From the NCBI GenBank assembly GCA_023249105.1, contig JAHFDG010000015.1, positions 1-64,000 of the forward strand: a DNA stretch of 64,000 nucleotides, given 5' to 3'. The notes below the pieces were generated by a model. That model was given only the letters and a program-made list of their open reading frames with translations, did no database searches and was not told the DNA's origin. This document shows, piece by piece, positions 11,640 through 43,744 of this stretch. Source of the DNA: Candidatus Methanoperedens sp. Lineage in GTDB: Archaea; Halobacteriota; Methanosarcinia; Methanosarcinales; Methanoperedenaceae. Numbering within the stretch: position 1 is the first letter of the stretch; each line of letters starts with the position of its first letter. The position numbers were made by a program, and so were the translations under genes.

Positions 11640-14600
11640 ATGACTGAAAATTCACCTGAAATTCCAGCCTATGATATATACTGGAAAAAAAAATTAAAAT
11701 CTCTTAAGGATATAAGTTATTCAAGAGATGGGAATTACTTACTTGTAGGATCAAACGAGGGCAGAGTATATTTTTTTGAAAAAGATGGGACAGAACTATG
11801 GCAGCAGAATCTAAATGATATTACATGCCTTGGTGTATCAGGGGACGCGTCAAGAATTATCACGGGAAATAACTCCGGTTCATTATGTCTAATCTCGAAA
11901 GAAGGCAGGCGCGAGTGGGAAAAAAAAGTAAATGGTTCTATTAATTCGCTTTCGATCTCAGATGATGGAAAGAACATATGTATCGGCACTGATAAAGGCA
12001 TAATCTTTGATTTTAATGATTCAGGAAATGAGTTATGGAAGCATAAGATTAAAGGTACATTGGATGGTGGGATTTGTCATTCGCCAGATGGGAAATTCAT
12101 TGCAGTTGGGTCATGGGATACAGTTCACCTTTTTAGCGTGGAAGGCAAAATTATTTGGAAATTTAAATTTAACAAAAAAATTACTAATGTTTCTTTGGCT
12201 GAGAAAGCCTCTCTTATCGCAGCGTGTACAAAAGGAAGCATAGGGTTCATCGGAAATGAGGGCAATCTAATATCTGAAAAGGCAATTGCAAATGGATTCA
12301 AAAGTGCATCGATATGTGACAACCGTATTTATGCTATATCCTCAAATAATGTATATATTTTTAATAATAGAGGAGAACAGCAAACTTTTTTCGAAGCGCC
12401 AGAGAGTCTTTTAAAGATCTATGTAAACTCAAAAGAATTTATTTCAGCAATATCAGAAAACAGGATTTATATGTTTTCGTCTTTGATGAAGCCGGAGGTG
12501 AACATTCTAACAGAATCATTAATTTTCCGTGAAAAACAACCATTGAAAGTCGAAGTCCTGAACAACAGTCCTAAAGATTTTGAGTTAGAACTAGAATTAA
12601 GATCCAACGGATTAACTCCGGGTAATTTTAAATCACTTGTTAAAGTTCCTGCTAACGGAAAATCAAATGCTGAATTTTTGGTCGCTGCTGATAAAATAGG
12701 AAAATGCAATATTGAGTTTTTTATAAAAAATAAAAATATTAAATCAAATAAAAACATCATCGAAGTTGTTCCGCCAAAGATTGAATTGAATATTTCACAT
12801 CATCCTAAATATGAATTTAATGCAGAGGATGACGAAATTACAATGATTATAGACATTGAAAATAATGGGCAAGGAACAGCAAAAAAAATCGGTGTCGTTG
12901 GGGATAACAACCTTTTCTTACCAGAACTGAAACCTGAAGCTAAAACTTCTTTAACATACAAAATAAAGTTGCCATCCGGAGAGCATAATTTATCGAAGAA
13001 TATAATTTATGAAGATGAGTTTGACAACAAATTTAATATTGAATGTTCGGGTCGTATTTTGGTTGAAAAAGCGCCTTATGTATGGGGCTTAAAACAACCT
13101 GTGCCAAAAATCACTACAGGGAAAACAGAAATTATCAAATTTGATGTGAAGAATATCAAAAAAGATGTTTTGAATTTGATATTCAATATCACATCTGAAA
13201 AAATTGAGATTAAACCTGATAGTAAAGCGGTGCAGTTGAAGCCTTCAGAAAGTCAAGAGATGGAATTTAGTTTTATGCCAAGGGAATCTGGTGAGAATAT
13301 TGAATTTAGCATCATAATAGAATATGACGGCAAAATACAAAAATACGAAAATGATATCAAAGTATACGCCGGACCGCCGCATATTATTGTAAAAAACCAC
13401 TTGCCAAAAGATAAATACCTCCTTGGTGAGGAAATCTATGAGACACTGGAATTATTAAATGATGGGGAAAGCGCTGCAAAAAATATACAGATAGATGGTA
13501 TCCCTGAAAAGATCCCAATATTGGAACCGAAAATTCTGAAATTGGTTAACAGACCACTCCAGAGCAGTGAGGCAAAATCTTACAGATCCGAAAAAAACAG
13601 GATAAAATATGAAGATGATGTGGGAGATTATTCAATTGAGTTCGACTCCAAAGCTTATACTGTTCAATCACCGGCATTAAGAATAAAAGTGCCAGAAATT
13701 AATTTACAGGAAAATATCAAAAAAGAAGTTATGTTTGAAATAACGAATGTTAGTAATGAGTTGATGAAAGGCATCTCTGTTGAGCTTTCGATCCCTGATG
13801 ATAGGACCATCATAGATAAGCGTGCTATTGCTATTGAAACCATCAGCCCCAATACTACAATACCAGCAGTGTTCCATATGACTGCAAACAAAGAAGGAAT
13901 TGTGGATTTCAGCATATGCGCAAAACATCAAGGGGCGATTATCGCTCAGCAAGCCGGAACTTTCATTGTGGGTTCAAAGACCCCGGCGCTTATAATTGAA
14001 GCTGATGATGGTGGAATGGTGCAAAATGAGCATTCCCTGTTAAAATTAAAGATTACCAATACAGGAGAAATGGAAGCCAGAGATATATCCATTAAAATAC
14101 ATTGTGAAATCGATAAAATGTTCTGCAAAGAAGTAACGCCGTCAAATCATTCCGAATTAAAAGAAATAAAACCTTACGAAAGCAAAGTAATAAATTTGGG
14201 ATTCTATCCTGAAAATGCTGGCAGAGTCTCTCTAATTATTAGGAGTTTCTGTAAATCAATATATGGCAAAGACTTGCCGGAGAAAAGGAACGAAGTTATT
14301 TGTACAATCCGTCCCCAGGCTCAGAAAGCTGAAAAGCAAATTATTGTCGGTGGCGACTATTTTGATGGAGGTGGTACTAAAATTAAAGATGCCGTGGTTC
14401 AGAAATGCTCTTTTGACCAAAGCGGAGGAAATGTAGAAGATAGTAATATCCAGAAAGGTATCAGTGGTCAAGGTAGTGTTGATATTAGAGATAGCATCGT
14501 TCAAAGAACTTCTTTGGGAGACAATAAGAAAAATATAGAAAAATACCGGGCATTATGTATCCAGGCGTTCGAAGATGGAAAAATCACCATGGGAGAGCGT

Positions 14601-14957
14601 GACTTTTTGAATAATGAGGCAATACAACTTGGTCTTTCAGAATCAGAGAAAAGACAAATCGAAGATGATATATCAAGAAATAAAGGAGTTAAAACCGTTA
14701 ATATCGAAGCATACAGAAAGCAAGCATTTGCAGTGTTTAGGAAAGGTAAAATTACCCAGGACGAAAGAGGATTACTAGATGTATCAAGATTTAACTATGG
14801 TTTAAACAGAGAACTACAAAAACAAATTGAAAATGAAATTTTAGCGGCACTTTCAAAAGATAACATTATAGTAGAAGAAGAGAAATTTTGTCCTAATTGT
14901 GGAAAGATAATAATAAAAGGTACATTCTGCGGAGATTGCGGCAGAAAAGCTACATAG
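11640..14957 (+). CDS. Large multidomain protein: PQQ-like beta-propeller, multiple CARDB/Ig-like domains, DSVVQ motif, TerB-like helical repeats, C-terminal zinc ribbon
   Basis: N-terminal repeats of the GRVYFFEKDGTELWQ type. Several xNxGxxxAxxI CARDB-like units. GGDYFDGGG...DSIVQRT. Two KITxxERxxL helical repeats. C-terminal FCPNCG...CGDCG. Confidence 0.55.
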   Translation: MTENSPEIPAYDIYWKKKLKSLKDISYSRDGNYLLVGSNEGRVYFFEKDGTELWQQNLNDITCLGVSGDASRIITGNNSGSLCLISKEGRREWEKKVNGSINSLSISDDGKNICIGTDKGIIFDFNDSGNELWKHKIKGTLDGGICHSPDGKFIAVGSWDTVHLFSVEGKIIWKFKFNKKITNVSLAEKASLIAACTKGSIGFIGNEGNLISEKAIANGFKSASICDNRIYAISSNNVYIFNNRGEQQTFFEAPESLLKIYVNSKEFISAISENRIYMFSSLMKPEVNILTESLIFREKQPLKVEVLNNSPKDFELELELRSNGLTPGNFKSLVKVPANGKSNAEFLVAADKIGKCNIEFFIKNKNIKSNKNIIEVVPPKIELNISHHPKYEFNAEDDEITMIIDIENNGQGTAKKIGVVGDNNLFLPELKPEAKTSLTYKIKLPSGEHNLSKNIIYEDEFDNKFNIECSGRILVEKAPYVWGLKQPVPKITTGKTEIIKFDVKNIKKDVLNLIFNITSEKIEIKPDSKAVQLKPSESQEMEFSFMPRESGENIEFSIIIEYDGKIQKYENDIKVYAGPPHIIVKNHLPKDKYLLGEEIYETLELLNDGESAAKNIQIDGIPEKIPILEPKILKLVNRPLQSSEAKSYRSEKNRIKYEDDVGDYSIEFDSKAYTVQSPALRIKVPEINLQENIKKEVMFEITNVSNELMKGISVELSIPDDRTIIDKRAIAIETISPNTTIPAVFHMTANKEGIVDFSICAKHQGAIIAQQAGTFIVGSKTPALIIEADDGGMVQNEHSLLKLKITNTGEMEARDISIKIHCEIDKMFCKEVTPSNHSELKEIKPYESKVINLGFYPENAGRVSLIIRSFCKSIYGKDLPEKRNEVICTIRPQAQKAEKQIIVGGDYFDGGGTKIKDAVVQKCSFDQSGGNVEDSNIQKGISGQGSVDIRDSIVQRTSLGDNKKNIEKYRALCIQAFEDGKITMGERDFLNNEAIQLGLSESEKRQIEDDISRNKGVKTVNIEAYRKQAFAVFRKGKITQDERGLLDVSRFNYGLNRELQKQIENEILAALSKDNIIVEEEKFCPNCGKIIIKGTFCGDCGRKAT

Positions 14958-15031: not shown

Positions 15032-15349
15032 ATGAAAACAAGGAAAAAATTCACACGAGAATTTAAAATATCGATTCTTCGTGAACTTGAGAACGGAAAA
15101 AGTGCAGCACAGGTATGCCGGGAAAACGGCATTCATCCCCCAATGCTATCAAAATGGAAACGGGAATACAAAGAAAATCCCGGGACAGCATTCAGCGGCA
15201 ATGGCGATATCAGCAAACCGGAAGCAAAATTAGCAGAATCAGAACGTCTCATAGGTCAGTTGTATGCTGAAAATGCATTTCTAAAAAAAGTATTGAGCAG
15301 CTTAGAGACCAAGCTGCAGGAGCATCAAAAACAGAGAGAAAGGAATTGA
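15032..15349 (+). CDS. IS3-family transposase OrfA (HTH)
   Basis: MKTRKKFTREFKISILRELENGKSAAQVCRENGIHPPMLSKWKREY is the classic IS3/IS911 OrfA helix-turn-helix. A leucine-zipper-like tail follows. Confidence 0.85.
   Translation: MKTRKKFTREFKISILRELENGKSAAQVCRENGIHPPMLSKWKREYKENPGTAFSGNGDISKPEAKLAESERLIGQLYAENAFLKKVLSSLETKLQEHQKQRERN
15283..15289 (+). promoter_or_regulatory. Putative -1 programmed frameshift slippery heptamer A AAA AAA (OrfA to OrfAB fusion)
   Basis: A-run at 15283-15290 in the OrfA frame. The -1 frame is open from here into OrfB (KKSIEQLRDQAAGASKTERKELMYM...). Confidence 0.5.
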
Positions 15350-16221
15350 TGTATATGACAATCCAGAACATGCATAAAGAGACCAATCAAATAAGCATAA
15401 GCAGAGGATGCTCAGCTCTCGGGGTCAACAGAAGCGTATACAGCAAATGGATCAGGCAGGACCAGACACATTACTCCGATCCTGAAGAGATGAAACTCAA
15501 GAACGAGATACAGGCGATTGCAATAGATTTTCCCAGATATGGATACAGACGGATAACAATCGAATTGCATCGACGTGGATTTGAAGTAAATCATAAGGTC
15601 GTTTACGAACTTATGAGAATAGACAACCTGCTGTGCATAAAAAAGCAATTTGTCCCAAAGACAACTGATTCTGAACACAACCTGCCAGTCTATCCTAATC
15701 TGGCGAGAGATATTGTGGTAACTGGCATTAATCAACTATGGGCGGCTGATATCACATATATACGCATGGTGCGGGAATTCATATATCTCGCGGTTATAAT
15801 CGATGTATTCAGCAGGAAGTGCATTGGATGGAAATTGGGCAGGGATATTGATGCAAAACTCGCTCTGGCAGCTCTGAATATGGCTTTAGCGGATCGCAAG
15901 GATTTGGGTATTTCGAACCTTATTCATCATTCTGACCAGGGAGTTCAATACGCCTCATGGGAGTATGTTGATAGACTCAAAGAAAACGGTATCAAGATCA
16001 GCATGAGCAGAAGGGGAAATCCATATGATAATGCTATCGCTGAGAGCTTCATTAAGACTTTGAAATACGAGGAGGTATATCTCTGGGAATATGAAACGTT
16101 TGATGAAGCCCACAAGAATATCAAGAAATTCCTGGAAGTGGTATATAATAAAAAGCGGGTTCATTCATCTATCGGGTATGTCACTCCTGAAGAATTTGAA
16201 AAATCTGAAGGGAGGTTTTAA
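15346..16221 (+). CDS. IS3-family transposase OrfB (rve integrase/DDE catalytic core)
   Basis: WAADITYI...HSDQGVQYAS...NPYDNAIAESFIKTLKYE are the DDE motifs D...D...E(35). It overlaps OrfA in the -1 frame. Confidence 0.9.
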   Translation: MMYMTIQNMHKETNQISISRGCSALGVNRSVYSKWIRQDQTHYSDPEEMKLKNEIQAIAIDFPRYGYRRITIELHRRGFEVNHKVVYELMRIDNLLCIKKQFVPKTTDSEHNLPVYPNLARDIVVTGINQLWAADITYIRMVREFIYLAVIIDVFSRKCIGWKLGRDIDAKLALAALNMALADRKDLGISNLIHHSDQGVQYASWEYVDRLKENGIKISMSRRGNPYDNAIAESFIKTLKYEEVYLWEYETFDEAHKNIKKFLEVVYNKKRVHSSIGYVTPEEFEKSEGRF

Positions 16222-16260: not shown

Positions 16261-19200
16261 TCAGTCCAAGTATTTCTTGATCCTTTTAATAATTTCTTCG
16301 TTATTGAACATCGCTCTTGTCTTATCAAGCAATATGTTCCCAAATAATAGCGATGCACCTTCTTTACTTTTATCTTTGGTTTCTATTTGTATCAATTTTT
16401 GTGAAACTGCCCAGAGATCAGCAATAGGCGAAACATTGTAGTTCTGGATACTGCCTGTTATCTCCCGGTCCACAAGTTGAAGTTTGTTGAGTACATCTTT
16501 TTTGTGTTTATCTATGAATTCTTCGGGGTTGGTCATGTATAAGTTGATCATTTGATTATAATCTGCCATATTTATCGACACTTCTACTTTTCCGGACGCT
16601 TTAGAGCGCATGTTAATGAAATCCGAGATATTTTCTTCATTAGTCAGTGTGGTTTCCATTTCCTTGGTAATTTCCTCAGCCACAAAATAGAGATTATAAA
16701 TCTTTTCTTTTGAGGGATCAGAATCTAAATACCCTGGTGTAGTGGCTATAGTTTCAATGAGCCTTATGATCTCAATACAGATGCCCTTATAATATTCCGG
16801 GATGCACATATCGCATGAAGAAGATAGTTTTTTCATAGATTCATGCAATGATTTTTTGATATTATCCCCAATAGCTTTCAGTTCCTCATCAAGGTTTATT
16901 TCGGGCTTTAAGTAGATTTTCTTGTTCAGCTTTATATCGTTCACATCCAGAGACAGTACTTCAGTTTTATAATATTCCTTTTGAACCGATATGTCATGGC
17001 TGCCAAGCGATATGTCTGGGATCACCACATCTCCTTTCTCGTCGGTCATAAAGCTCATCTCGCCAAGTTTAACTTCAGCTCCAGAGAGTGGTCTTTCATT
17101 AGCAAATTCATACACTGAAATTTGCATTGTTGCTTTACCCCCGAGTTCGATGAGAATCCTATCATTTTTATTAACCTCTAATTCTCGTTTTTCTTCTTCG
17201 AACCCTTTAGAATTAATTCTCAGTTTGTACCATCCTTCTCTAACCTTTCCAAAAATCACCTTGCCGTCAATATCACTTACCCTTTCAATAAGCTCTCCGT
17301 CAGCGGATTCGAGAATTACTGTTGCTTTCCGGATTGGAGTTTTATTATACATGTTTTTTACTTCCAAAATCAAAGTGTAGGTATTTTCAATTTTTCTTGG
17401 TGGTTCTGGAACTGTAATCTCTTTTTTGCCAGGCTTTGATTTTGGCTTATCTACCTTGAGTGCAGTATCTACCCCCCGGGTATCTTTAGGTATGACTTTT
17501 TTGGGTTTGAAAAAGTGAAAAACCACAAGAAGAAAGACTACTAATACGACCAATAATATGACCAGAAAAGTTAGGGACTTATTTGAAGATGAGTCGTTCG
17601 AATAGTTCAGAGTATAAGTAGTTGGAATGCTGGGCGTAGAGGTTGATGTAATTTCATATCCACCTGAAAGAAGAGAACTTTCGCCGCTTATGGATTTTTC
17701 AATCAAAGGATAGAACCTGAGATTTGAGCCATCGTTTGCAACTTTAAATTTCAACCCGCCCATTAAATCGACAGTTCCAGAATTTAATAGGATTCTATTC
17801 TTATTAACTAAAACAACTGAGTCGCTATTAGAGCCTGTGACTTCGAATACTCCAAATCTGTCTCCGAGCCTAATATTACCAGCAGAATCAGAAGTCAGAA
17901 AAGTATATCTTAACTGCACCATATCTGAGGTTGCGCCCGCAAAAACACTATCTAAATAAGTGACCAGTATCGGCACAGATCCTTCATCGCCAAAATTAGC
18001 TTCGTATGTATATATTTGACCCTGTGCTAATACCTTATCATCCAGTTTTTTACCGTTTTTACTAAATACAAGCCATGCTTGCCGTGGAGATGCTTTGGCA
18101 TCGATTGATTGTGCTGTGATCGTATATCCGTATCCTATATCCCATGTTTCGCCGACTGTGAGCGATTTCTTTTCAGATGTTGACGCACCTTGTTCTAGCA
18201 GTATTTTTGCAAGTTTATTACTTTTTCCATTAATTGCAATGTATTTGTCTCCCTGCCAGCCAACTGCATTATAATAATTTTTGCCACCAACAGATATGCC
18301 CTTGGCTGATGTAACTTTATAGTTTACAGGAGCCGCTGAGGTTCGATAAGTAAGACTATTAGTTTCAATAAAATTATTGTTAGCATTAAATGAGCTAAGA
18401 GTAAGGGTCTCTGTGCTCTGGTCACTATCAAGATCGTACCATAACCCTGCAAAGTTATTAGCATTCCATGAGGCAGATCCCTTCGCCAGTTCACCTCTGA
18501 TTGTGTATTTATCCGATTCCTGTAATCTGATTACAGGAAAATATGTAAGGCGATCGCTATCAGCAACCATAAACTTAATATTACCCATCAAATCAACGCT
18601 CGCTCCTTTTAGAAGCTGTACTCCCACGTCATTTATCAATGCTAAATTATTATCATTTGCCGTAGAGACTTTGAATATTCCGTATTTATCACCTGACTGG
18701 ATTGTTAGGACGCTTTTTGAAACCAACCAGGAATATTTGAATTCAACAACATCACTTGTAGTACCAGAATTGATATTATTTATGTATGTTACAAAAATCG
18801 GTACGTTTGTTTCTCCTGCAAGGTATCCGCTGTAACTGTATATTTGCCCTTTAGCGATTACCTTATCATCCAGTTTTATGCCATCTTTACCGAGTACGAT
18901 CCATGCTTGCGGTGGAGATGCCTTAGCATCGATTGATTGTGCTGTAAGCGTGTAGCCGTCTCCCATGTCCCATGTTTGACCGACCCCAAGAACTTTGCTT
19001 TCCTGCGACTCTTGCTCTAAAACCAGCTTTGAGAGTTTATTTGCTTTACCATTAATAGCGATATACTTTTGTCCCTGCCATCCGATAGCGTAATAAGAAG
19101 TCTTTCCATCCACAGGCAGCCCTGTTGCAGAGTATACTCTAAATAGAATAGCCGTATCGAAAGTGGTGTATTGTAAGTTACCCTGCTCTATAAAGCGATT

Positions 19201-19413
19201 GTAATCATTTATTGAACCACGGACAACTAAAGACTCTGTACTTTTGTCAGCTTCGATATCGTACCAGAAACCTGCAAAGCTCTGGGCATTCCATGAAGCC
19301 TGTCCTGTGGCTTTAGAACCCCTGATTTCAATGCCTGCTGCTGCAATATTGGTTAAAAGAATTATTAATGCTGCGATTAAAATTAATTGTTTTATTTTAA
19401 GTGATTTAATCAT
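16261..19413 (-). CDS. S-layer-type protein with tandem DUF1608-like domains, TM helix and cytoplasmic CarbopepD_reg-like domains plus conserved C-module
   Basis: Signal peptide. Two ~280-aa repeats (SWNAxxFAGxWYD...AIGWQGxKYIAINGKxNKL...GxTWDxGxGYTxTAQSIDAKASP) are typical of Methanosarcina S-layer DUF1608. A TM segment LTFLVILLVVLVVFLLVVF follows. Cytoplasmic beta-sandwich repeats and a C-module with CDMCIPEYYKGIC and PIADLW complete the protein. Confidence 0.65.
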   Translation of the reverse strand: MIKSLKIKQLILIAALIILLTNIAAAGIEIRGSKATGQASWNAQSFAGFWYDIEADKSTESLVVRGSINDYNRFIEQGNLQYTTFDTAILFRVYSATGLPVDGKTSYYAIGWQGQKYIAINGKANKLSKLVLEQESQESKVLGVGQTWDMGDGYTLTAQSIDAKASPPQAWIVLGKDGIKLDDKVIAKGQIYSYSGYLAGETNVPIFVTYINNINSGTTSDVVEFKYSWLVSKSVLTIQSGDKYGIFKVSTANDNNLALINDVGVQLLKGASVDLMGNIKFMVADSDRLTYFPVIRLQESDKYTIRGELAKGSASWNANNFAGLWYDLDSDQSTETLTLSSFNANNNFIETNSLTYRTSAAPVNYKVTSAKGISVGGKNYYNAVGWQGDKYIAINGKSNKLAKILLEQGASTSEKKSLTVGETWDIGYGYTITAQSIDAKASPRQAWLVFSKNGKKLDDKVLAQGQIYTYEANFGDEGSVPILVTYLDSVFAGATSDMVQLRYTFLTSDSAGNIRLGDRFGVFEVTGSNSDSVVLVNKNRILLNSGTVDLMGGLKFKVANDGSNLRFYPLIEKSISGESSLLSGGYEITSTSTPSIPTTYTLNYSNDSSSNKSLTFLVILLVVLVVFLLVVFHFFKPKKVIPKDTRGVDTALKVDKPKSKPGKKEITVPEPPRKIENTYTLILEVKNMYNKTPIRKATVILESADGELIERVSDIDGKVIFGKVREGWYKLRINSKGFEEEKRELEVNKNDRILIELGGKATMQISVYEFANERPLSGAEVKLGEMSFMTDEKGDVVIPDISLGSHDISVQKEYYKTEVLSLDVNDIKLNKKIYLKPEINLDEELKAIGDNIKKSLHESMKKLSSSCDMCIPEYYKGICIEIIRLIETIATTPGYLDSDPSKEKIYNLYFVAEEITKEMETTLTNEENISDFINMRSKASGKVEVSINMADYNQMINLYMTNPEEFIDKHKKDVLNKLQLVDREITGSIQNYNVSPIADLWAVSQKLIQIETKDKSKEGASLLFGNILLDKTRAMFNNEEIIKRIKKYLD

Positions 19414-19429
19414 TTATACCTCTATGGCG

Positions 19430-21019
19430 TCAGAGAGGGTTTATTTTTAGCACTCTTATTATTTCTGGAGAAGTTAACATTTTTTTAGTAGTGTCAAGCA
19501 GTATGTTTGCAAGCAAGAGTGACGCCGCTTCCTCATATTCATTTTTGGCTCCTGTAATAATTTTTTGTGATATGCTCCATAGATTGGCTATAGGATTTAT
19601 GTTAAAATTTTGTAGGCATTTGGTTATTTCCGCATCAGTATCCTGAAGTTTCTTTAAAATCTTAGATTTATAAGTTATCAAGAATTCAACCGGGCTGCTC
19701 ATATATGATTGTATTGTAGCATCATAATCAGAGGGGTTAATAGCTATTCTTGGATTCGTCTTGATGCCCCTGCTCGCCATGTTAATAAATTCCGTGATGT
19801 TCTCGCTGTTTGTTAAAATAAGTTCCATTTCCTTGCAGATTTGACTAGTTACTTTGTACAGTGTATTTATTTTATCAGATGATTGATCTGCGTAAACATA
19901 AACAGAAGTGGAAGCTATTGTTTCATTCAGTTTAATCAACTCGTTGCATATACCTTTATAATACTCCGGAATACACATATCGCAGGCATAGGAGAGTTTC
20001 TTCATCGATTCGTTTATTGAATTCCTGAGCTTCTCTCCCTGAATTATATACTCATCACTCAATTTAATATCGGGTTTCAGAAATATCTTTATATCCTGAT
20101 TAATCTCTTTGATTTCCTGGGTGGTCGTTTCCAGTTTATAGGAATCTTTTGTAACAGTCAAGTCATATTTTCCAAACGAAATATCCTGAATGAACGCAGC
20201 CCCTTTTTCATCGGTTCTGACTTCTCTGTCTCCAAGATTTATTCTTGCATCAGCGATTGCACTCTGGTTCACACTATCTAAAACATGAATTGTCAGATTG
20301 GCTTTTCCTTTAAGTTCAATACTAATCCTGTCATTTTTATTTAATGCTATTTCACGGGATTCTTCTTCAAACCCTTTTGAATTAACAATTAATGTATACG
20401 CACCTTCCTTCACCTTCCCAAAAATAACTTTCCCATCAATATCGCTAATTCTTTCTAATTTTTCTGTATCATTCCGAAGAAAAACAATGGCTTTAGGTAA
20501 AGGTTCTTTGTTAAATTTGTTTTTAATTTCAACTATCAAGGTATAAGTAGGAACATCAGTTATTGTTTTCTGGGTCGGAGTTTCAGTCTCAGGTTCACCT
20601 TCGCCTTCTTCGACATACTCTTTCCTGCAATTTTCACATAACAATTCTCCATCAGAATAAACTAAATCATCCGTGATTTTACCGCAGTTTTGACATGCCA
20701 TTCTAATGGGGACCGTTGTACCTGCAGGTTCACCAGAAGTTGTTTTTTTGCAGTGTGGACACCGTTGCAACGTCTCCAATTTTTCTTTTCCACAATGTTC
20801 ACAAAAAACGATTTTGCCTTTCGGTCTGACATAGACGTATAACGGGACTATAAGTAAAGCTAAAATAAAAGTACCAATGCCCCAAAGAAAAATAGCCAAA
20901 ATAAAAGTACTAATGCCCCAGAGAGACCAGTTTTTGGCTCTTTTTTTTGCATCGCTGGCAATCCAGAATACGATTGCAATCAAAAAGAGAAATAATATCC
21001 AGCTACTGTCATTAGCCAT
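19430..21019 (-). CDS. Membrane protein: 2 TM, cytoplasmic zinc ribbons, 2 CarbopepD_reg-like domains, conserved C-module
   Basis: N-terminal hydrophobic helices. CEHCG...CPHCK...CQNCG...CENC. The C-terminal ~330 aa are paralogous to the C-terminus of 16261..19413 (ACDMCIPEYYKGIC, PIANLW). Confidence 0.6.
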   Translation of the reverse strand: MANDSSWILFLFLIAIVFWIASDAKKRAKNWSLWGISTFILAIFLWGIGTFILALLIVPLYVYVRPKGKIVFCEHCGKEKLETLQRCPHCKKTTSGEPAGTTVPIRMACQNCGKITDDLVYSDGELLCENCRKEYVEEGEGEPETETPTQKTITDVPTYTLIVEIKNKFNKEPLPKAIVFLRNDTEKLERISDIDGKVIFGKVKEGAYTLIVNSKGFEEESREIALNKNDRISIELKGKANLTIHVLDSVNQSAIADARINLGDREVRTDEKGAAFIQDISFGKYDLTVTKDSYKLETTTQEIKEINQDIKIFLKPDIKLSDEYIIQGEKLRNSINESMKKLSYACDMCIPEYYKGICNELIKLNETIASTSVYVYADQSSDKINTLYKVTSQICKEMELILTNSENITEFINMASRGIKTNPRIAINPSDYDATIQSYMSSPVEFLITYKSKILKKLQDTDAEITKCLQNFNINPIANLWSISQKIITGAKNEYEEAASLLLANILLDTTKKMLTSPEIIRVLKINPL

Positions 21020-21114
21020 CTTACATCCCTTTAACTTTTATCAAGATTACCTCTTTCTTATTTTAATTAATCGTAAATTTCAAATTAATAGCGCAATCAC
21101 CATTTAAGTCAATA

Positions 21115-23175
21115 TTAAAACATGCTGATCGCCAGGCGCGCTTTCACCTCTTCTTTATTATACATTTCCCTTACATGGTCAAGCAATTTATCGTCGATGA
21201 ATAGCATAACGCCCCGTTTCTTTGCATCTGCTTCATTCATACTGTTCTCCAGCAATTTTTGCGCCACCCTCCAGAGATCAGCCACAGGCTGTATAGTAAG
21301 AGTGCCGCTTAATTGCGTCAGTTCATTATCTATCTCATTGAGCTTGTTACCAACATCCCTGAAATGGTTCTTGTGATAATTCGCGGTGTCGCGTACAAGT
21401 TCGCTGAACTTTTCAGGTGAATAGTCAGATACAGTCAGATCATCAACAGGAGGCAGATTCTGGATTGAAAAGTAAAAGTCCACATTGCTTTTTTCCCTCA
21501 TGATTCTTGAAATTTCATCCGCTAAAAATTCTGTTGTGCTAAGAGTATATTTTATTATTTCGTCTGGACTTGTTTTTGCACCAAGAAATTCAACAGGTCT
21601 TTTTATTATTTTGTCTACTAATTGCGTGGGTTTTTCTCCTACCTTTTTAAAGAATAATGGAATGCACGTATCGTATGTAGAAACTTCTTTAAAACCAGTA
21701 TTGAGTTTCTCATTGATTTTACTGATCGAGTTGAGAAATTCCGGCTTTGGTTGATAGTTGAATCTGAGGTCAAGCGTCACAGCACATGTTCTGTTTTCAA
21801 TGATAGTTACCTGTTTTTCGACCGGATCGTACAGTGAGGGAATGCTTGTTTTAAGGCGGACAATATAATCTCCAATAGACAATTTCTGGTTTATTCTACC
21901 GTTGTCATCTGTAGCAAAATCCATCGCCTGAGAAGCGCCTTTTTTCATCAAGCTAACTGGGGTTCCAGCAAAGGGTTTACCAGTTGCTTGCTCAGAGATT
22001 GTTATATCAAGCGTACCTGCTTTTTTGAAAAGCTGGATTCTCTTTGTAGTTTCTGAACTGCTTAAGGGAATATTCTTTTGTTCAACGAATTCCCCGCCCG
22101 AACTGCGTATAGAAACGACATATTGTTTATTTTTGGAAATGGTAAACTTCGCAATCCCTGAAGCATCTGTAACACCAGGGCTCCCGTTTGCATCCACCAG
22201 AGAAGTAGTCTCTTTAACACTCACGTTGATTCCGCTGATAGGGTTACCAGCTTCGTCCACTACCTCTATCTGTACTGGCTGCCGTTTGATCAGGGATATT
22301 TTGATTCTTTCATCGTCGGAAGGGATGTTTACTTCTCTTGAAGTGGATTCATAATTCCCACCACCGTCAACTTCAATTTTGTAGGTTCCCTTAGGAAGTT
22401 CTAAGTGATATGTCCCGTCAAACTCAATGCGGGCAAGGTAAGGCATACCACTTTTATTAACCGCTCTGACTTTTGCATCTGTGATTCTTACAAATCCTGA
22501 TTCATCGAGTAAGTCAATTTGCAATTTATTGGTTAACGTTGCAATAGAAGGGCTCACGAGCCTTTGTTCAGATTCGTTCTCATCAGATGTTTTAATTCTT
22601 ATGAGACCTAGTTTATATAATCCCCAAAATACTCCAGCGAGACCTAATAAAAACAAAGCTAAATTAATATAAACATTGGAAAACAACTTAGATAGTATAC
22701 CCTGCGGAGGGGTTTCTGTAGGTGCGGTCGTAATTTCTGGAGTGGTAGCCGCTGGTGTTGTTGGTGCTGGAGTCGTGGGTGATGGGGTGGGTGCAGGTGT
22801 CGGAGTGGAAGTCGGAGCAGGGGGATTTTTATTGATGACTGTAATTTTAGTTGCTAAATTATCACTTATATTAGTTACCGTTACATCAAAACTTTTTCTT
22901 AATGTTAGATTTTTTAGGGATTCTGGATATAAATTTGAATTAGATATATTTAGCACTAATTTTCCATCATCCTTAATTGTTTCATTGAATGAAGACTCTG
23001 GAAAATCTAGTCTATAAGTAGCTCCTTTACTGAAATTTAGATAAGATAATGTTAAGTTATCTCCGTTTAGTTCGCCTGTGGGTTCCGTAGCAGCAGTGGT
23101 GGTAATCGAAAACGAAAACATCACCAAAAATACAAAAAATATCCTCAATCCGTTCATAGATGACCCCGTTATCAT
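21115..23175 (-). CDS. Envelope-spanning protein: signal peptide, extracellular domain, Pro/Thr linker, TM, 3 CarbopepD_reg-like domains, divergent C-module
   Basis: PPAPTSTPTPAPTPSPTTPAPTTPAATTPEITTAPTETPP linker and a TM helix LALFLLGLAGVFWGLY. The C-terminus has TYDTCIPLFFKKVG...PVADLWRVAQKL, homologous to the C-module of the two downstream genes. Confidence 0.6.
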   Translation of the reverse strand: MITGSSMNGLRIFFVFLVMFSFSITTTAATEPTGELNGDNLTLSYLNFSKGATYRLDFPESSFNETIKDDGKLVLNISNSNLYPESLKNLTLRKSFDVTVTNISDNLATKITVINKNPPAPTSTPTPAPTPSPTTPAPTTPAATTPEITTAPTETPPQGILSKLFSNVYINLALFLLGLAGVFWGLYKLGLIRIKTSDENESEQRLVSPSIATLTNKLQIDLLDESGFVRITDAKVRAVNKSGMPYLARIEFDGTYHLELPKGTYKIEVDGGGNYESTSREVNIPSDDERIKISLIKRQPVQIEVVDEAGNPISGINVSVKETTSLVDANGSPGVTDASGIAKFTISKNKQYVVSIRSSGGEFVEQKNIPLSSSETTKRIQLFKKAGTLDITISEQATGKPFAGTPVSLMKKGASQAMDFATDDNGRINQKLSIGDYIVRLKTSIPSLYDPVEKQVTIIENRTCAVTLDLRFNYQPKPEFLNSISKINEKLNTGFKEVSTYDTCIPLFFKKVGEKPTQLVDKIIKRPVEFLGAKTSPDEIIKYTLSTTEFLADEISRIMREKSNVDFYFSIQNLPPVDDLTVSDYSPEKFSELVRDTANYHKNHFRDVGNKLNEIDNELTQLSGTLTIQPVADLWRVAQKLLENSMNEADAKKRGVMLFIDDKLLDHVREMYNKEEVKARLAISMF

Positions 23176-24542
23176 TCCTCCTCCACCTCGTCCTCGTCTT
23201 CCTCCTCTTTGCAGAACTCCTTCACTACTTTCTCTGTATGGTCTATATAATTCTTTAAAATTCCTTCAATACGCACAATCTCTTCCACTGAAAGTTTCAC
23301 ATTATCCAGCTCCACATGACCGCCTTCTTCAGCCATCATGAGGATTTTCTTTAATGATTTGAAATCCTGCCAGGGCTTCTCCAGCATTTCTTTTAAACTG
23401 AAACCTCCAAGAAGCAGCAGCACATCGAAAGTATCTTTCTTACTTTTATTATACGCCAGGGAAACCATTCCCATCTTTCCGCAAATGTTTTCCTTCTTCC
23501 ACTTATTGAAAATACTGTTGATTTTATCCTCTGTGAAATCCCCTTTGTTCAAATGCTTCTCAGGTACGCTAACAATCAGGTACCCGATAACAGCAGTCTT
23601 GGGATCCATATTTACGAATGAATTTTTTGCTGCTTCATCAAGAGCCATTTCAATTTCAATGAAATTAATATCATTATCAACAGAAACACATGGAGTAAAA
23701 TGATACAGGTTCATTAAACTTGGAAACTTCACATAATCCTTGATATCGATCACGCCTTTCGAAAGTCTCCCCGGTGCGATCATCAAATCAATGGCTTTGA
23801 TTATTTTTTTATTTATATCAGGGAATTTAGGATCAATTCCCTCGGTTAATTCAATATTTTCAGCAATTTTTGAATTATCAACTATCAAGACCATATCTGC
23901 ATTTTGCTGAGAATTATCCCCGAATTTCAGAAGCCTTGAAAGCCCGCACACAGCATTGAATTGCCTCTGATCAGGTTCAGTCGAGTATGGAAGTATTGCC
24001 AGCGCCACATGGATATGGTTTTGAAGAGACACAGAGGTGCCGTGTTTCATCTGATGGATAATGTACGGAATACTGCCATTCCCTGTTCCGCCGCCCAGCG
24101 CAGCCATGTCCAGAACAACATCCCCTGCTGCCGTGCCGAGCGCTTCAATCGGTCTGCGGATTTTCGTCTCAAAATCTTTCCTGGCGTACTCCTCGCCTTC
24201 CTTATAAACATTGCCTGCGCCGCCGCCGCCAAATAAAAGTATATTCCTCCTTCCTATTTGCGCAATCAGGGCTTTTTCTTCCTCGGTTACAGCCTTTTTT
24301 TCAAGCTCTAATAAAGTATTACTTATATCAGTCCTGTTGCTGTTCATCAATAAAATTCTGTTATCTATCGCTTCATTTTTCATTTTCGTGAAATAGAGAG
24401 AAGCTACCTTTCCGGCACCTTCGCCTGATGCTAGGATGATCCACCGGGTAAATTGCCTTTCAGCGCTTTCTTCAATCGTTTCTGCTCTTGATGGCCGGAC
24501 AGCCTCAAGGTTCTCTTCTAACTGGCTCATAAAATACCTCAA
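23172..24542 (-). CDS. Divergent tubulin/FtsZ-superfamily GTPase with acidic C-terminal tail
   Basis: T1-like Gly loops IILASGEGAGK and LLFGGGGAGN. T4 signature LGGGTGNGS. LIVDNSKI corresponds to the DNEAL region of FtsZ/tubulin. T7-like GVIDIKD. The C-terminal EEEDEDEVEEE resembles a tubulin E-hook. Confidence 0.7.
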   Translation of the reverse strand: MRYFMSQLEENLEAVRPSRAETIEESAERQFTRWIILASGEGAGKVASLYFTKMKNEAIDNRILLMNSNRTDISNTLLELEKKAVTEEEKALIAQIGRRNILLFGGGGAGNVYKEGEEYARKDFETKIRRPIEALGTAAGDVVLDMAALGGGTGNGSIPYIIHQMKHGTSVSLQNHIHVALAILPYSTEPDQRQFNAVCGLSRLLKFGDNSQQNADMVLIVDNSKIAENIELTEGIDPKFPDINKKIIKAIDLMIAPGRLSKGVIDIKDYVKFPSLMNLYHFTPCVSVDNDINFIEIEMALDEAAKNSFVNMDPKTAVIGYLIVSVPEKHLNKGDFTEDKINSIFNKWKKENICGKMGMVSLAYNKSKKDTFDVLLLLGGFSLKEMLEKPWQDFKSLKKILMMAEEGGHVELDNVKLSVEEIVRIEGILKNYIDHTEKVVKEFCKEEEDEDEVEEE

Positions 24543-26680
24543 CTATTTTTCCATATCAATTTCGAATCATATTCTATATTTTTATAATAATCATATTCTT
24601 TTTTAAGCCCTTCAATAATCGCAATAATTTCCTCCACTGGCAGTGGCGCCGAGAGGTAACCTTCGGTCAGCTCTTGGATTTTTTCCTTCTTGCCGACCTC
24701 TATATTTTCTTCAAGAAGGGTCTCGATTTCCTTTCGCAGGGCATCGACATCATAAACCATGTAATCTTTTCGGTATTTGATGATTTTGAACTTCTCATTG
24801 TCCTTTGACCACAGATAGAGCAAACATGGACTATATTCAACTTTCAGTCTATCATACGTAGAGAGTATAAATTTTTTAGAATCAATTTCTTTCTGTATTA
24901 TGTCTTTGAATTTAACTAATGACTTTTGTAAAGATTCTTCCTTATCCTGGCATAGTTTTTCCCCGAGCGGTACTTCTTTTAATTTGAGTTCGATGGAAAG
25001 GTCGTTATCCAGTTCAATTTCTTTACTCTGACTTTTATGTCCTTTTTGTTTGATTAATAATTTATACGAACCTTTACTCAAACCCATCAAAATTGCATTT
25101 CCACCATTATCCGATACTTCTTTTTTAATAATTTTGTCGTCAAGCTTCAGGGAAACTTCGGCACCGTTTAACGGCAGGTTATCCTTATTTAATACTCTCA
25201 CAGAAACTTTATACAATTTTCTCGCAACCTGAAGAGAAGTAGTTAGAATTTTTTGGAAGCTGTCATATAAGGCATCCGGATGGAAATAACTGTATAATTC
25301 CATGAATTCTTCGGGATTTTTGACTTTAAGTTCAGCAACAGTAACTTTTCCTTTAGCATCAAGCTCACTTTTGATTTTATTTTCAATTTTACTGTAGATC
25401 CCAATTATCTTTGCTTTTAAGCCACTTTTTTCCATTATTGGAATCATTATTTTTAAGAGGCTTGAGAACTTTTCGGGATAAGCTTTCACTTTTGTTTCAT
25501 TCAGCAACTCGTCATATTCTTTTTCAACTGGTTGCCTTTCTGGATAGAAACGTTGTGGAAAATTAGCCTGCTTGATCGTGGTTTCATTATTTTTTAGAGT
25601 TGTGTATACCTCTTTAACTATTTCGTTTGCAGTTGGGATTATTTGGGGTTCTATTTGTTGCAGTTCTCCAATCTTTGAAGCGGATTCGAATCTTTTTGCA
25701 CGTTCTTCTAAAATCAATAACTTTTGGGTGTAATCATTATCGATTTTACCTTCAACTGTAGCAAGAATCTTCCCAATTGCAGAAAGTAAATCAGTCTTAT
25801 ATGCACTGAAATCCCCTCCAGCAATAGATTCAAGAGAATTCTTTATTCTTGTAAGGGATGCTATGCCTTTTTCGAAATCTCTGTAATTCTTGCTCTGAAT
25901 TATCTCCTCGATGCTGTTCATCTCCCGTTCTATGCTGGAGACGTCTTTGCCCAATTCCTTAGCCTTTTGCTTCCATTGTTTTGCTTCAGTTAAACAGGAT
26001 GATACGATATCTCTGAAGATGGAAGTAATATTATCGAGATAACGGGCATTTTCTATTATAGAGTTAGTTTCAAGGCTCTTATTGTTAATCTCAGCTTGAA
26101 GCCTTGATGCTGATGGATCTACGGTGTAACCAGCGCTCTTAAGGGTGTTTATATACGAAAGGTATGCCTTCGAAACTATATCTGTGAAATCTTTTATTTT
26201 GTTTTTCAAATGATTATCCATAGAATTTATATTTTTGGCGACATTATCAATGGTGTCGAGGTCGATTTTTTGGATGGATATTTCATTTAAGTTAGTGGTG
26301 TACGTTCCGTCAGTCTCAACAGCATTGATCCCTATCAAGGGTAATTCTTTATTCGCTAGAGTTTTTATTGCCTCATCAATATCATCTACCTGTAAACCAT
26401 AGGTTCTATTAATATCTCGTGCAACGGAGTGTAAATTCTTAAAATCGTAAGCGATTTTCTCAGTTTCCTGTGCTTTCAGAGTTAAACCAGGATCATGTCT
26501 TGAAGTTCTTAGTTGTTTAATATACTGATAAGCAAATGCTATGAAAAATAAAGGGATACCTATTATGGTGTAATAAAGAGCTGTCTCATAACCTTTAAAT
26601 AAAAATAATATGACGCTAACGCTAAACAATCCAACTATGATCAAAATTATTTTTAGATTATTTTTTGTCTCCATTTTCAT
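24539..26680 (-). CDS. Membrane protein (2 N-terminal TM) with long cytoplasmic coiled-coil and CarbopepD_reg-like beta-sandwich domain
   Basis: Hydrophobic helices at aa 10-55, then an extended heptad-rich region. KVSVRVLNKDNLPLNGAEVSLKLDDKIIKKEVSDNGGNAILMGLSKGSYKLLIKQKGH is a transthyretin-like fold motif. Confidence 0.55.
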   Translation of the reverse strand: MKMETKNNLKIILIIVGLFSVSVILFLFKGYETALYYTIIGIPLFFIAFAYQYIKQLRTSRHDPGLTLKAQETEKIAYDFKNLHSVARDINRTYGLQVDDIDEAIKTLANKELPLIGINAVETDGTYTTNLNEISIQKIDLDTIDNVAKNINSMDNHLKNKIKDFTDIVSKAYLSYINTLKSAGYTVDPSASRLQAEINNKSLETNSIIENARYLDNITSIFRDIVSSCLTEAKQWKQKAKELGKDVSSIEREMNSIEEIIQSKNYRDFEKGIASLTRIKNSLESIAGGDFSAYKTDLLSAIGKILATVEGKIDNDYTQKLLILEERAKRFESASKIGELQQIEPQIIPTANEIVKEVYTTLKNNETTIKQANFPQRFYPERQPVEKEYDELLNETKVKAYPEKFSSLLKIMIPIMEKSGLKAKIIGIYSKIENKIKSELDAKGKVTVAELKVKNPEEFMELYSYFHPDALYDSFQKILTTSLQVARKLYKVSVRVLNKDNLPLNGAEVSLKLDDKIIKKEVSDNGGNAILMGLSKGSYKLLIKQKGHKSQSKEIELDNDLSIELKLKEVPLGEKLCQDKEESLQKSLVKFKDIIQKEIDSKKFILSTYDRLKVEYSPCLLYLWSKDNEKFKIIKYRKDYMVYDVDALRKEIETLLEENIEVGKKEKIQELTEGYLSAPLPVEEIIAIIEGLKKEYDYYKNIEYDSKLIWKNS

Positions 26681-27883: not shown

Positions 27884-27888
27884 TCAAA

Positions 27889-28269
27889 TCACCCTTTGAA
27901 TAAACCCCTACTTTCCTTGATATACAAAATAATGGTCGATATCCACAATCCCAGAATGATGCTGAGTCCCCCGCCAATTGCATATTTCTGGATGTTTTTA
28001 TCAGCATAACTTTTAAGTATGCTGGTTTTGTCATTCAGTTTTTTTGCATTTTCATTGGCTTCATTAATCTTGTCGTTTCTATCATTATATTGTTTTTTGA
28101 GTTGATCATAAGCAGAATCCAAATCCTTTGGAGATGAAGGACCAGTGGGCATCAATATTGATGATAACACATCAGGAAATAGAAGGTTCATGACGGCTGC
28201 CACGAGCAGTATGGTAGATATGACCAGAACCAGTTTTGCAATTGTCCTTTTCATTTCATTTGATGTCAA
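27889..28269 (-). CDS. Small 2-TM membrane protein with intervening coiled coil
   Basis: 126 aa. TM helices at aa 10-30 and 98-118. Confidence 0.45.
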   Translation of the reverse strand: MTSNEMKRTIAKLVLVISTILLVAAVMNLLFPDVLSSILMPTGPSSPKDLDSAYDQLKKQYNDRNDKINEANENAKKLNDKTSILKSYADKNIQKYAIGGGLSIILGLWISTIILYIKESRGLFKG

Positions 28270-29583: not shown

Positions 29584-29640
29584 TAGTAATCTATTTATAT
29601 CTTTTCATTGATTGATGTATCGGGTATGCATGTGCGACAG
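29546..29640. promoter_or_regulatory. Divergent AT-rich promoter region between the tubulin-like cluster (minus) and the 29612 gene (plus); TATA-like ATTTATAT
   Basis: Short AT-rich intergenic stretch with a TATA-like octamer near 29565. Confidence 0.3.
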
Positions 29641-39299: not shown

Positions 39300-39334
39300 T
39301 CCTTTTTCACCTTCTTGGAGTTATCATAAATCGT

Positions 39335-43734: not shown

Positions 43735-43744
43735 TTTTCACCTG

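Follow-up and report, generated by a model that had tools for sequence, protein, structure and literature searches.

Membrane-anchored adaptors of the ZipA, FtsA, SepF, EzrA and RodZ type bind their cytoskeletal polymer, typically via the conserved C-terminal peptide of that polymer. Among described tubulin-superfamily GTPases, two groups are closest to those reported here. The "Halo.Tub" or CetZ-like non-canonical tubulins are divergent, occur in Halobacteria and Methanosarcinia and are encoded as several quasi-tandem copies surrounded by unknown genes (Santana-Molina et al. 2023, PMC9871819); that study covers the tubulins only and describes their neighbors as unknown genes, for the most part coiled-coil ones. 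The FtsZl1 proteins are ~1000 aa long, contain a long coiled coil and are encoded next to vWA, OmpA and another GTPase (Makarova and Koonin 2010, PMC2875224).

Within a 64,000-nucleotide stretch of Candidatus Methanoperedens DNA (the window), we analyzed an operon that encodes two tubulin-like GTPases, TubA (433 aa) and TubB (456 aa), together with transmembrane (TM) proteins that end in a common C-terminal module. TubA and TubB fit the published description of Halo.Tub and are assigned to it by description, not by phylogeny; PMC9871819 does not, however, describe the module family, the conservation of the operon order or the adaptor architecture of the TM proteins. The locus resembles FtsZl1 and Borg systems in that a divergent tubulin-superfamily GTPase is encoded in a multigene operon with a predicted membrane role, and in that both occur in Halobacteria and in Methanoperedens-associated elements. 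Membership in FtsZl1 itself was rejected: TubA and TubB are short, with probably complete tubulin-like folds and no coiled-coil extension, and their cluster has other neighbors, with no vWA or OmpA genes. The ~1057-aa tubulin-like protein of Borgs, in contrast, is of the long FtsZl1 type.

Results

Three consecutive proteins share a C-terminal module

Genes A (16261-19413, 1050 aa), B (19430-21019, 529 aa) and C (21115-23175, 686 aa) lie in a row on the minus strand, with exactly the boundaries assigned in a preliminary description of this DNA. Their C-terminal regions are similar far beyond chance: A and B are 51% identical over 370 aa (E = 1e-118), A and C are 27% identical over 380 aa (E = 4e-20), and B matches C at E = 8e-10, which bears out the proposal of a module common to all three. 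The nucleotide-level similarity reported for A and B was also recovered (65% over 546 nt, 16745-17286 versus 19914-20455); none was found between A and C or between B and C. A search of the window with the family HMM revealed no module beyond these three ORFs.

In protein A, the ectodomain consists of a signal peptide and two DUF1608 S-layer domains (17698-19413; PF07752, E = 1.6e-106, 355.5 bits against a cut-off of 30, in two stretches; TIGR01567, E = 6e-111, 369.9 bits against 121.9). Residues 1-31 and 608-641 are hydrophobic, and the hydropathy scan places a single TM helix at residues ~612-637, with a K-rich stretch after it (KPKKVIPKD...; helix at 17503-17580). A cytoplasmic spacer of two CarboxypepD_reg β-sandwiches (residues ~678-836, 16906-17382; PF13620, E = 1.8e-11, two stretches) then leads to the module (residues 837-1050, 16264-16905; family HMM E = 1e-58). 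The module is thus fused to a DUF1608 S-layer protein through a single TM helix, as had been proposed. A resembles the Methanosarcinales S-layer proteins (DUF1608/PF07752, MA0829 type) in having a signal peptide, a pair of DUF1608 domains, a stalk rich in Ser and Thr and a single C-terminal TM helix. To our knowledge, ordinary DUF1608 proteins stop shortly past that helix, whereas A extends ~410 aa into the cytoplasm, as the two β-sandwiches and the module.

At its N-terminus, protein B has TM helices (residues 6-66) and, on the cytoplasmic side, a pair of Cys4 zinc ribbons (C73/C76/C87/C90 and C109/C112/C128/C131; helices and ribbons together at 20627-21004). Two β-sandwiches (residues ~158-315, 20075-20548; PF13620, 4.2e-13; PF13715, 6.2e-12; SpaA, 5.5e-7) and the module (residues 316-529, 19433-20074; family HMM E = 6e-59, and alignment) follow. 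Protein C has a signal peptide, a ~90-aa ectodomain, a Pro/Thr-rich linker and a TM helix (residues 164-192; 22600-23175 in all), then a ~280-aa spacer of about three β-sandwich units (residues ~205-471, 21763-22563; PF13620, 3.1e-17, with Big_1 and bMG3 matches) and the module (residues 472-686, 21118-21762; family HMM E = 4e-69). Of the module copies, that of C is nearest to the haloarchaeal orthologues (best phmmer match 1e-31). The description of the extracellular parts as unrelated needs correction for B, which is practically without an ectodomain, while the two to three transthyretin- or CarboxypepD_reg-like β-sandwiches described ahead of the module stand in all three proteins: directly upstream of it, PF13620 scores 44.7 (A), 49.9 (B) and 63.1 bits (C), above the Pfam cut-off of 32.3.

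The module is a new all-helical domain

The AF2 model of the module of A is all-alpha, with 10 helices (pLDDT 95.2, pTM 0.92), in agreement with the helical character ascribed to it earlier. Known domains were sought in several ways: (i) no Pfam, NCBIfam, PHROG or PADLOC model covered the module region of A, B or C, (ii) among 32 module sequences compared with family models, no family was matched by more than one member, (iii) sequence and profile searches of the PDB returned nothing at E ≤ 0.001 (best E = 0.071), and (iv) Foldseek returned no PDB fold match at E ≤ 0.001 (best TM-score ~0.3). Neither in sequence nor in fold did we find homology to ZipA, FtsA, SepF or EzrA. The module is therefore a new, previously undescribed all-helical domain.

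Some details of the preliminary description did not hold. The module is ~212 aa long, not ~230, and the supposedly invariant Cys-x-x-Cys-x-P motif is carried by A and B only (CDMCIP), C having YDTCIP. The PxADLW motif is present in A (PIADLW) and C (PVADLW) but reads PIANLW in B. Family members share the signature D-x-[CA]-[IL]-P-x-[YF] ... N ... D-x-x-I-T ... P-x-x-x-[LM]-W ... R-L, and the acidic or polar residues D31, N91, D145 and R207 (module numbering) are strictly conserved.

The module is rare: an exhaustive profile search of 1.84 billion proteins yielded 91 representatives, 45 of them below 1e-10, and in all 91 it forms the extreme C-terminus. CarboxypepD_reg directly precedes it in nine of 10 diverse members (E ≤ 1e-4; seven above the 32.3-bit cut-off), and spacer lengths from TM helix to module cluster at ~100, 195 and 290 aa, corresponding to one, two and three β-sandwiches. 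The N-terminal part, by contrast with this constant end, may be DUF1608 S-layer domains, PKD repeats, a PQQ β-propeller, a small mucin-like stub, a polytopic membrane region, HEAT repeats or nothing at all. The paralogue fused to DUF1608 is lineage-specific, having been observed in the window, L001 and P0006.

The sequences place the module in the cytoplasm, as had been proposed. In A it follows the TM helix that comes after the S-layer ectodomain, in B it follows the zinc ribbons, and eight of 75 full-length family members have no TM helix or leader. N-terminal anchors have K/R-rich C-flanks, and members with a single anchor obey the positive-inside rule; over the whole family, the positive-inside bias is moderate (44/67).

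TubA and TubB are tubulin-like GTPases encoded in a conserved operon

The operon runs in the order TubA, small TM protein, ~350-400-aa protein, ~700-aa protein D, TubB and module protein(s), and in the window it lies on the minus strand. TubA is the first gene (28282-29583; PF00091, E = 3.9e-13), with orthologues in L003, L006, L009 and L019 (E = 3e-122 to 1e-83). Two conserved small or medium-sized membrane proteins of 126 and 396 aa follow (26693-28269), with counterparts matching in size and order in L003, L006, L012, L013 and L014. Protein D (24539-26680) overlaps the start of TubB by 4 nt, and its orthologues are present in every cluster; it carries a pair of TM helices at the N-terminus, an extended helical region, a single CarboxypepD_reg domain and, at the C-terminus, a distinct domain. 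Despite its β-sandwich, no module was found in D with the family HMM or with hhalign (probability 5%). The last 4 nt of TubB (23172-24542; PF00091, E = 2.1e-11) are in turn shared with the start of gene C.

TubA and TubB belong to the tubulin/FtsZ superfamily (PF00091, 44.9 and 50.5 bits for the two proteins, cut-off 33) and contain the T4-loop motifs GGGTGNG and GGGTGCG. Among 30 TubB homologues, GGGTGNG, the T7-like I-D-x-x-D-Y and the C-terminal helix motif I-x3-L-x2-Y (I425/L429/Y432) are invariant. The predicted fold of TubB (AF2, pLDDT 88) is closest to eukaryotic tubulins, which make up all of the best 50 Foldseek matches (TM-score 0.62-0.72; E ~1e-18 for gamma- and beta-tubulin). By sequence, the CetZ chains in the PDB (4b45, 4b46) match no better than FtsZ (E = 4e-5 versus 1.5e-6). 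One public relative carries the JGI label "tubulin-like protein CetZ"; Halo.Tub/CetZ-like proteins of Halobacterium and Natronomonas are annotated "FtsZ family protein, noncanonical."

Further neighbors lie on the plus strand. Divergent from TubA are two surface proteins of 331 and 684 aa with C-terminal TM anchors (29612-32654), whose orthologues, identified with phmmer, are encoded directly 3' of the module gene in haloarchaea. A convergent partner operon encodes an AAA + Vps4_C + DAC ATPase (932-2725), with orthologues at the same relative position in haloarchaeal clusters. Convergent with gene A is a leaderless β-propeller/CARDB protein of 1105 aa (11640-14957), which is kept beside the cluster in L001 and L002; haloarchaea have a similarly placed PQQ-propeller protein. 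An IS3 element adjoins gene A.

The module gene is linked to TubA and TubB in two archaeal classes

The operon is known from Methanoperedens-like archaea and from Halobacteria, and genomic linkage of the module with TubA/TubB thus spans two archaeal classes. Its full order recurs in the window, in a second Ca. Methanoperedens locus (L002), on a haloarchaeal chromosome (L003), in a metagenomic locus (L006) and on plasmids of Halobacterium salinarum R1 (pHS2, where the module gene is OE_RS12035), Natrinema and Halobaculum; L025 retains D-TubB-module, and L009 and L019 contain the same genes, rearranged. In the window, as in L002, L003, L006, L012 and L013, the end of TubB overlaps or directly meets the start of the module gene. 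Co-occurrence with tubulin-like neighbors had been suggested as a check on the preliminary description, and the outcome was favorable: six independent loci found via the module alone carry TubA and TubB orthologues within a few kb, and in a tblastn search of 72,556 plasmids the module, TubB and TubA matched the identical five records, at six places each.

No tubulin genes were present in the available flanks of L027 (10 kb upstream, 2.5 kb downstream), L008 (a 5.4-kb contig) and L022 (10 kb on one side), and adjacency to TubA/TubB is therefore frequent but not obligatory. The module gene has the 684-aa surface-protein family, rather than TubB, as its closest conserved neighbor in L009, L011, L016 and L019, and the partner of the module could thus be a cluster component other than TubB.

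Discussion

Since the module is nearly always encoded next to TubA and TubB, in methane-cycling as well as salt-loving archaea, its probable role is to fasten a tubulin-like skeleton inside the cell to the cell surface. At a probability of roughly 0.55, we favor the reading that the module is the defining domain of TM adaptors of the TubA/TubB operon, which would link TubA/TubB filaments to variable surface domains; filament binding and positioning are what we infer. Each adaptor would combine a variable N-terminal part, usually a TM anchor, a CarboxypepD_reg stalk and the helical module. The rigid stalk of one to three β-sandwiches would hold the module roughly 4-12 nm below the membrane, where it would dock on the TubA/TubB polymer, the likeliest contact being the conserved C-terminal helix of TubB (I-x3-L-x2-Y) and its tail. 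The tubulin fold and the invariant motifs of TubB speak for a polymerizing tubulin. Cytoplasmic tubulin-like filaments would in this way be tied mechanically to various surface proteins and position them, one of these in this organism being the S-layer-type protein A. C would be the ancestral copy, translationally coupled to TubB, with B and A as lineage-specific tandem duplicates. We propose a likeness to ZipA, FtsA, SepF, EzrA and RodZ, in which a membrane-anchored protein binds a cytoskeletal polymer through a cytoplasmic domain: as with known tethers, the module gene adjoins a cytoskeletal gene, and as in RodZ and ZipA, the adaptor is bitopic with a spacer between membrane and binding domain.

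There are several other possibilities. The module could be a self-association scaffold whose paralogues bind each other to form a sub-membrane plaque, with the tubulins recruited indirectly (for example via D) or not at all. Tandem paralogues are indeed frequent (a set of three in the window; pairs in L002, L004, L005, L018, L020 and L026), helical bundles are a kind of fold that often serves oligomerization, and D, itself a TM protein with a β-sandwich, is always there as a possible intermediary. However, haloarchaeal clusters encode a single module protein each, so that hetero-association of paralogues is not the conserved function, and the tight coupling of the TubB and module genes points to TubB. 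We consider such a scaffold unlikely.

Slightly less likely still is an outside-in regulator, in which the ectodomain would sense the envelope or a ligand and the module would modulate TubA/TubB polymerization or GTPase activity in an EzrA- or stathmin-like way, instead of serving as a passive tether. The diverse ectodomains (PQQ propeller, PKD, S-layer) are sensor-like, and the four strictly conserved residues would be consistent with a regulatory interface or an active site, but some members have no ectodomain or no TM helix, a rigid β-sandwich stalk would be an odd transmitter of signals, and the module is unlike any known signaling output domain.

The association with tubulin genes might also reflect functionally unrelated hitch-hiking on a mobile or accessory island, given the megaplasmid location of the haloarchaeal cluster, the IS3 element and the existence of stand-alone module genes. 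This is improbable, as gene order and 4-nt overlaps are kept from Methanoperedens-like archaea to Halobacteria at locus GC contents of 32% to 71% and plasmid co-occurrence of the three genes is exact. A Cys-based metal-binding or redox domain is the least probable of all: the CxxC...C site suggested earlier can be read from C30-x-x-C33 and C42 of A and B, but over 82 family modules C30 occurs in 10, C33 in 41 and C42 in 13, protein C is without the first Cys and haloarchaeal modules have Ala at the second, and a conserved metal site is therefore rejected.

Extending the adaptor reading, we tentatively suggest that, in Halobacteria and Methanosarcinia, TubA and TubB may build a tubulin-like cytoskeleton beneath the membrane, possibly a heteromeric one, which the TM adaptors would hard-wire to S-layer, PKD or propeller ends at the surface. 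The module would hold on to the C-terminal helix or tail of the tubulin, similar to the way in which eukaryotic MAPs bind H12 and the E-hook, and the Vps4-like AAA ATPase would be a possible remodeling factor. If true, a tubulin cytoskeleton would here be linked across the membrane to the surface lattice for the first time in prokaryotes, an arrangement conceptually comparable to LINC or integrin-type linkers.

Three consecutive membrane proteins end in the same module

Genes A (16261-19413, minus strand, 1050 aa), B (19430-21019, minus strand, 529 aa) and C (21115-23175, minus strand, 686 aa) encode membrane proteins whose architectures differ upstream of a shared C-terminal region. In pairwise BLASTP this region aligned with 51% identity over 370 aa between A and B (E 1e-118), with 27% identity over 380 aa between A and C (E 4e-20) and with an E of 8e-10 between B and C. 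At the DNA level, A and B are 65% identical over 546 nt (16745-17286 versus 19914-20455). Both the common C-terminal module and the nucleotide similarity, the latter for A/B, had been claimed in the preliminary description, which was essentially right except for motif details. The module exists but is ~212 aa rather than ~230 aa long; the CxxCxP motif, described as invariant, is present in A and B only (YDTCIP in C); and the PxADLW motif holds in A (PIADLW) and C (PVADLW) and is PIANLW in B.

Protein A starts with a signal peptide and two DUF1608 S-layer domains (PF07752, 1.6e-106; TIGR01567, 6e-111), continues through a Ser/Thr-rich stretch, one transmembrane (TM) helix (~612-637) and a Lys-rich segment, and ends in the module (residues 837-1050), which is preceded by two CarboxypepD_reg beta-sandwiches. 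In protein B, N-terminal TM helices are followed by two Cys4 zinc ribbons and then by a pair of beta-sandwiches that lead to the module (316-529). In protein C, a signal peptide and a ~90-aa ectodomain are joined through a Pro/Thr linker to one TM helix, and about three beta-sandwiches separate this helix from the module (472-686).

The module is a new protein family

No model in Pfam-A, NCBIfam, PADLOC or PHROGs covers the module in A, B or C, no Pfam family was matched by more than one of 32 diverse module sequences, and a profile search of PDB sequences gave nothing significant (best E 0.071). The AlphaFold2 model made from the 32-sequence alignment is very confident (pLDDT 95.2, pTM 0.92) and predicts an all-alpha domain of ten helices; a fold comparison limited to solved structures returned no relative. 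The module is a new protein family, rare and so far unannotated. Our literature search found no description of it or of its operon, the sole related item being a remark on “Halo.Tub” genes (PMC9871819; see below).

A word-indexed protein search with a single module or the 32-sequence profile found only the fragments P0001 and P0093. This database, which recovered homologues of the tubulin-like protein TubB normally, appears blind to the module family, and representative proteins, 1.84 billion in all, were therefore searched exhaustively by HMM instead. This search gave 91 matches (45 below 1e-10, 17 below 1e-30). Since the indexed search misses relatives that the exhaustive search finds easily, absence from it does not signify rarity. 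The module ends at the protein C-terminus in every one of the 91 representative matches, and positions D31, P35, Y37, N91, D145, P159, W164, L192 and R207 (A-module numbering) are conserved family-wide.

The module belongs to a two-tubulin operon

Genes A, B and C close a tightly packed 13-kb minus-strand operon transcribed in the order TubA, a 126-aa TM protein, a 396-aa membrane protein, D, TubB, C, B, A. The two tubulin-like GTPases are TubA (28282-29583, minus strand), the first gene, and TubB (23172-24542, minus strand), directly before C. D (24539-26680, minus strand, 713 aa) has TM helices, a helical region and one beta-sandwich; the idea that its C-terminal region is a diverged module was rejected (hhalign probability 5%). 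D overlaps TubB by 4 nt, and TubB overlaps C by the same length.

Related operons were recovered via the module alone. A Ca. Methanoperedens nitroreducens MAG (L002) carries TubA-126-412-711-(286)-TubB-C-B and lacks A; another locus, L001, has B as well as A. The order Tub-85/93-350-700-Tub-module-~340-~920, together with a convergent operon of ~360, ~220, AAA and PQQ propeller genes, is common to a haloarchaeal chromosome (L003) and a contig from a metagenome (L006/L007). L025 has D-TubB-module, and L009 and L019 contain the same families in rearranged order. By phmmer, orthologues across loci scored 3e-122 to 1e-83 for TubA and 1e-91 to 5e-69 for TubB, and orthology was likewise confirmed for D and for a pair of surface proteins of 331 and 684 aa. 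The genes for this pair are divergent from TubA in the window, come after the module gene in haloarchaea and are convergent to it in L009, L011, L016 and L019.

Among 72,556 plasmids searched by tblastn, the TubB, haloarchaeal module and TubA queries matched the same five, in six places each: Halobacterium salinarum R1 pHS2, Natrinema sp. SYSU A 869 and three Halobaculum plasmids. In Halobaculum halobium each query has two places. The pHS2 locus (L012) lies at 165-194 kb of NC_010369.1; its TubA is OE_RS12060, its TubB OE_RS12040 and its module protein OE_RS12035, which carries the module at residues 710-919. In all three plasmids examined, the module gene is the immediate next gene after TubB, and the cluster genes are annotated “hypothetical” or “carboxypeptidase regulatory-like.” A plasmid megablast with the 6.9-kb A-B-C region gave no match. 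The proposed pairing with tubulin-like genes has thus survived the possibility that the module occurs widely without such neighbours, and these results show that the module is genomically dedicated to the two-tubulin operon in Methanoperedens-like archaea and Halobacteria, at loci whose GC ranges from 32% to 71%. As exceptions, the module genes of L027, L008 and L022 lie without tubulin genes within the flanks available, so dispersed paralogues exist. Of A, B and C, C is closest to the haloarchaeal orthologues and is therefore the ancestral copy, B and A (the S-layer fusion) having arisen by lineage-specific duplication.

Upstream of TubA, the haloarchaeal clusters L012, L003 and L013 have a third tubulin-like gene, which is longer (540-606 aa) and annotated as FtsZ, and with it a partner of ~450-600 aa; the window has neither.

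TubA and TubB are tubulin-like proteins

Both proteins pass PF00091, with GGGTGCG in TubA and GGGTGNG in TubB. Across 30 TubB homologues, a T7-like I265-D266-x-x-D269-Y270 element is invariant or nearly so, as is a C-terminal helix (I425-x3-L429-x2-Y432) in which the Tyr is invariant and the Ile and Leu nearly so. TubB of the window and Methanoperedens-like versions add an E-hook-like acidic tail, EEEDEDEVEEE. The predicted TubB model (pLDDT 88, pTM 0.88) best matches eukaryotic gamma-, beta- and alpha-tubulins (top 50 Foldseek matches, TM 0.62-0.72, E ~1e-18), while FtsZ and CetZ chains reach only 1e-6 to 1e-4 by sequence. In its predicted fold, TubB resembles eukaryotic tubulins more closely than it does FtsZ or CetZ.

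Relatives of TubB go by public names such as “FtsZ/tubulin family protein” or “FtsZ family protein, noncanonical,” and a 100% identical TubB entry exists in ENA assembly ERZ27279942 (contig k141_7279816). Santana-Molina et al. (2023; PMC9871819) mention quasi-tandem “Halo.Tub” copies among unknown coiled-coil genes but left the neighbours unanalysed; TubA and TubB fit this group by description. Identity with FtsZl1 or with the ~1057-aa tubulin-like protein of Borgs was rejected on size and architecture.

A constant cytoplasmic end on variable proteins

A CarboxypepD_reg domain is directly N-terminal of the module in 9 of 10 diverse family members, and the spacing between the final TM helix and the module clusters at ~100, 195 and 290 aa, corresponding to one, two or three beta-sandwiches. 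Four features of the sequences place this stalk and the module on the cytoplasmic side. The ectodomain of A is an S-layer domain, so the region after its single TM helix is inside; Cys4 zinc ribbons lie between TM helices and stalk in B and the family member P0002; 8 of 75 full-length members have neither leader nor TM helix, some beginning directly with a beta-sandwich; and where there is a single N-terminal anchor, the N-terminus is acidic or neutral and the C-flank rich in K/R.

What precedes the stalk and module differs greatly between members: DUF1608 (window A, L001, P0006), PKD repeats (P0022), PQQ/WD40-type propellers (P0035, P0051, P0026), HEAT-like repeats (P0038), polytopic membrane domains in haloarchaeal proteins, or none at all. 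Together, the data show that these proteins, most of them anchored in the membrane, end in a beta-sandwich stalk bearing a new helical domain in the cytoplasm.

Other genes around the operon

Beside the tubulin operon lies another protein family that combines variable ectodomains with a constant cytoplasmic tail. It comprises six consecutive membrane proteins (34295-45664, minus strand; 365, 766, 537, 961, 505 and 639 aa) whose ectodomains are PQQ/WD40-like beta-propellers and which also have a repeated fn3-like unit, one TM helix and a near-identical tail, RPYYKRAKLKREMAxTPTDWCPxCHKFTGGxxxCPHCGKETL, which is a zinc ribbon. The 505-aa protein (42217-43734) begins with a DUF1608-like fragment.

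An ATPase (932-2725, plus strand), preceded by a 208-aa helical protein (223-849, plus strand), has an MIT-like N-terminus, AAA and Vps4_C domains and, at its C-terminus, a diadenylate-cyclase (DAC) domain. In haloarchaeal TubA/TubB clusters, AAA orthologues are placed likewise, in the convergent partner operon before the PQQ propeller. A Vps4-, katanin- or spastin-type ATPase beside tubulin-like genes is worth study. Anti-phage defence or a viral origin was rejected, with no PADLOC or PHROG support except generic AAA matches of the ATPase. The minus strand encodes a CDC48_N-domain protein that stands alone and has a zinc ribbon at its C-terminus (45640-46242), and a second, short Vps4-like ATPase (AAA, AAA_lid_3, Vps4_C; 48966-50042).

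On the plus strand, a 1049-aa (2762-5911) and a 539-aa protein (5983-7602) share a ~250-aa domain (IKRGY.VLPNN..FGIRV.NN...) followed by “IIDSVVQRT”-type repeats, which recur near the C-terminus of a 1105-aa beta-propeller protein (11640-14957, plus strand); an FGE-sulfatase domain, of the formylglycine-generating enzyme-like kind, closes the 539-aa protein. An IS3-family element (15032-16221, plus strand; orfA 105 aa, orfB 291 aa with an rve integrase core) sits between gene A and this convergent propeller gene. In L001 and L002 the module and propeller genes are directly adjacent.

A candidate link between cytoskeleton and envelope

We infer that the module probably forms the head by which a transmembrane adaptor binds the filament. 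By analogy with FtsZ tethers and MAPs, which rely on C-terminal elements, the docking site would most likely be the conserved C-terminal helix and tail of TubB. As a system, the module proteins would be a variation on cytoskeleton-to-membrane adaptors, and S-layer coupling would be one lineage-specific case of this broader design.

The module might instead be a scaffold that associates with itself, which we consider improbable, or, with somewhat lower odds still, an outside-in regulator of polymerisation. It is unlikely that the tubulin association is neighbourhood hitch-hiking. The metal site suggested in the preliminary description from CxxC...C fails, because the cysteines are poorly kept across 82 family modules (C30 in 10, C33 in 41, C42 in 13), which excludes a conserved site.

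To our knowledge, SepF (for FtsZ) and CetZ's own membrane contacts are the only known cases that bear on how the archaeal cytoskeleton connects to the S-layer and how surface structures are positioned. The present finding adds to these one concrete, hitherto unannotated domain and a conserved operon, some 8-12 genes in size, that is built on two tubulin-fold GTPases, and the architecture of surface domain, TM helix, rigid stalk and helical head predicts, in testable form, a transmembrane cytoskeleton-to-envelope link. Halobacterium salinarum R1 is a genetically tractable model organism, and with the cluster on its plasmid pHS2 the hypothesis is directly testable. The finding also offers a functional handle on the “Halo.Tub” non-canonical tubulins, relevant to tubulin evolution.
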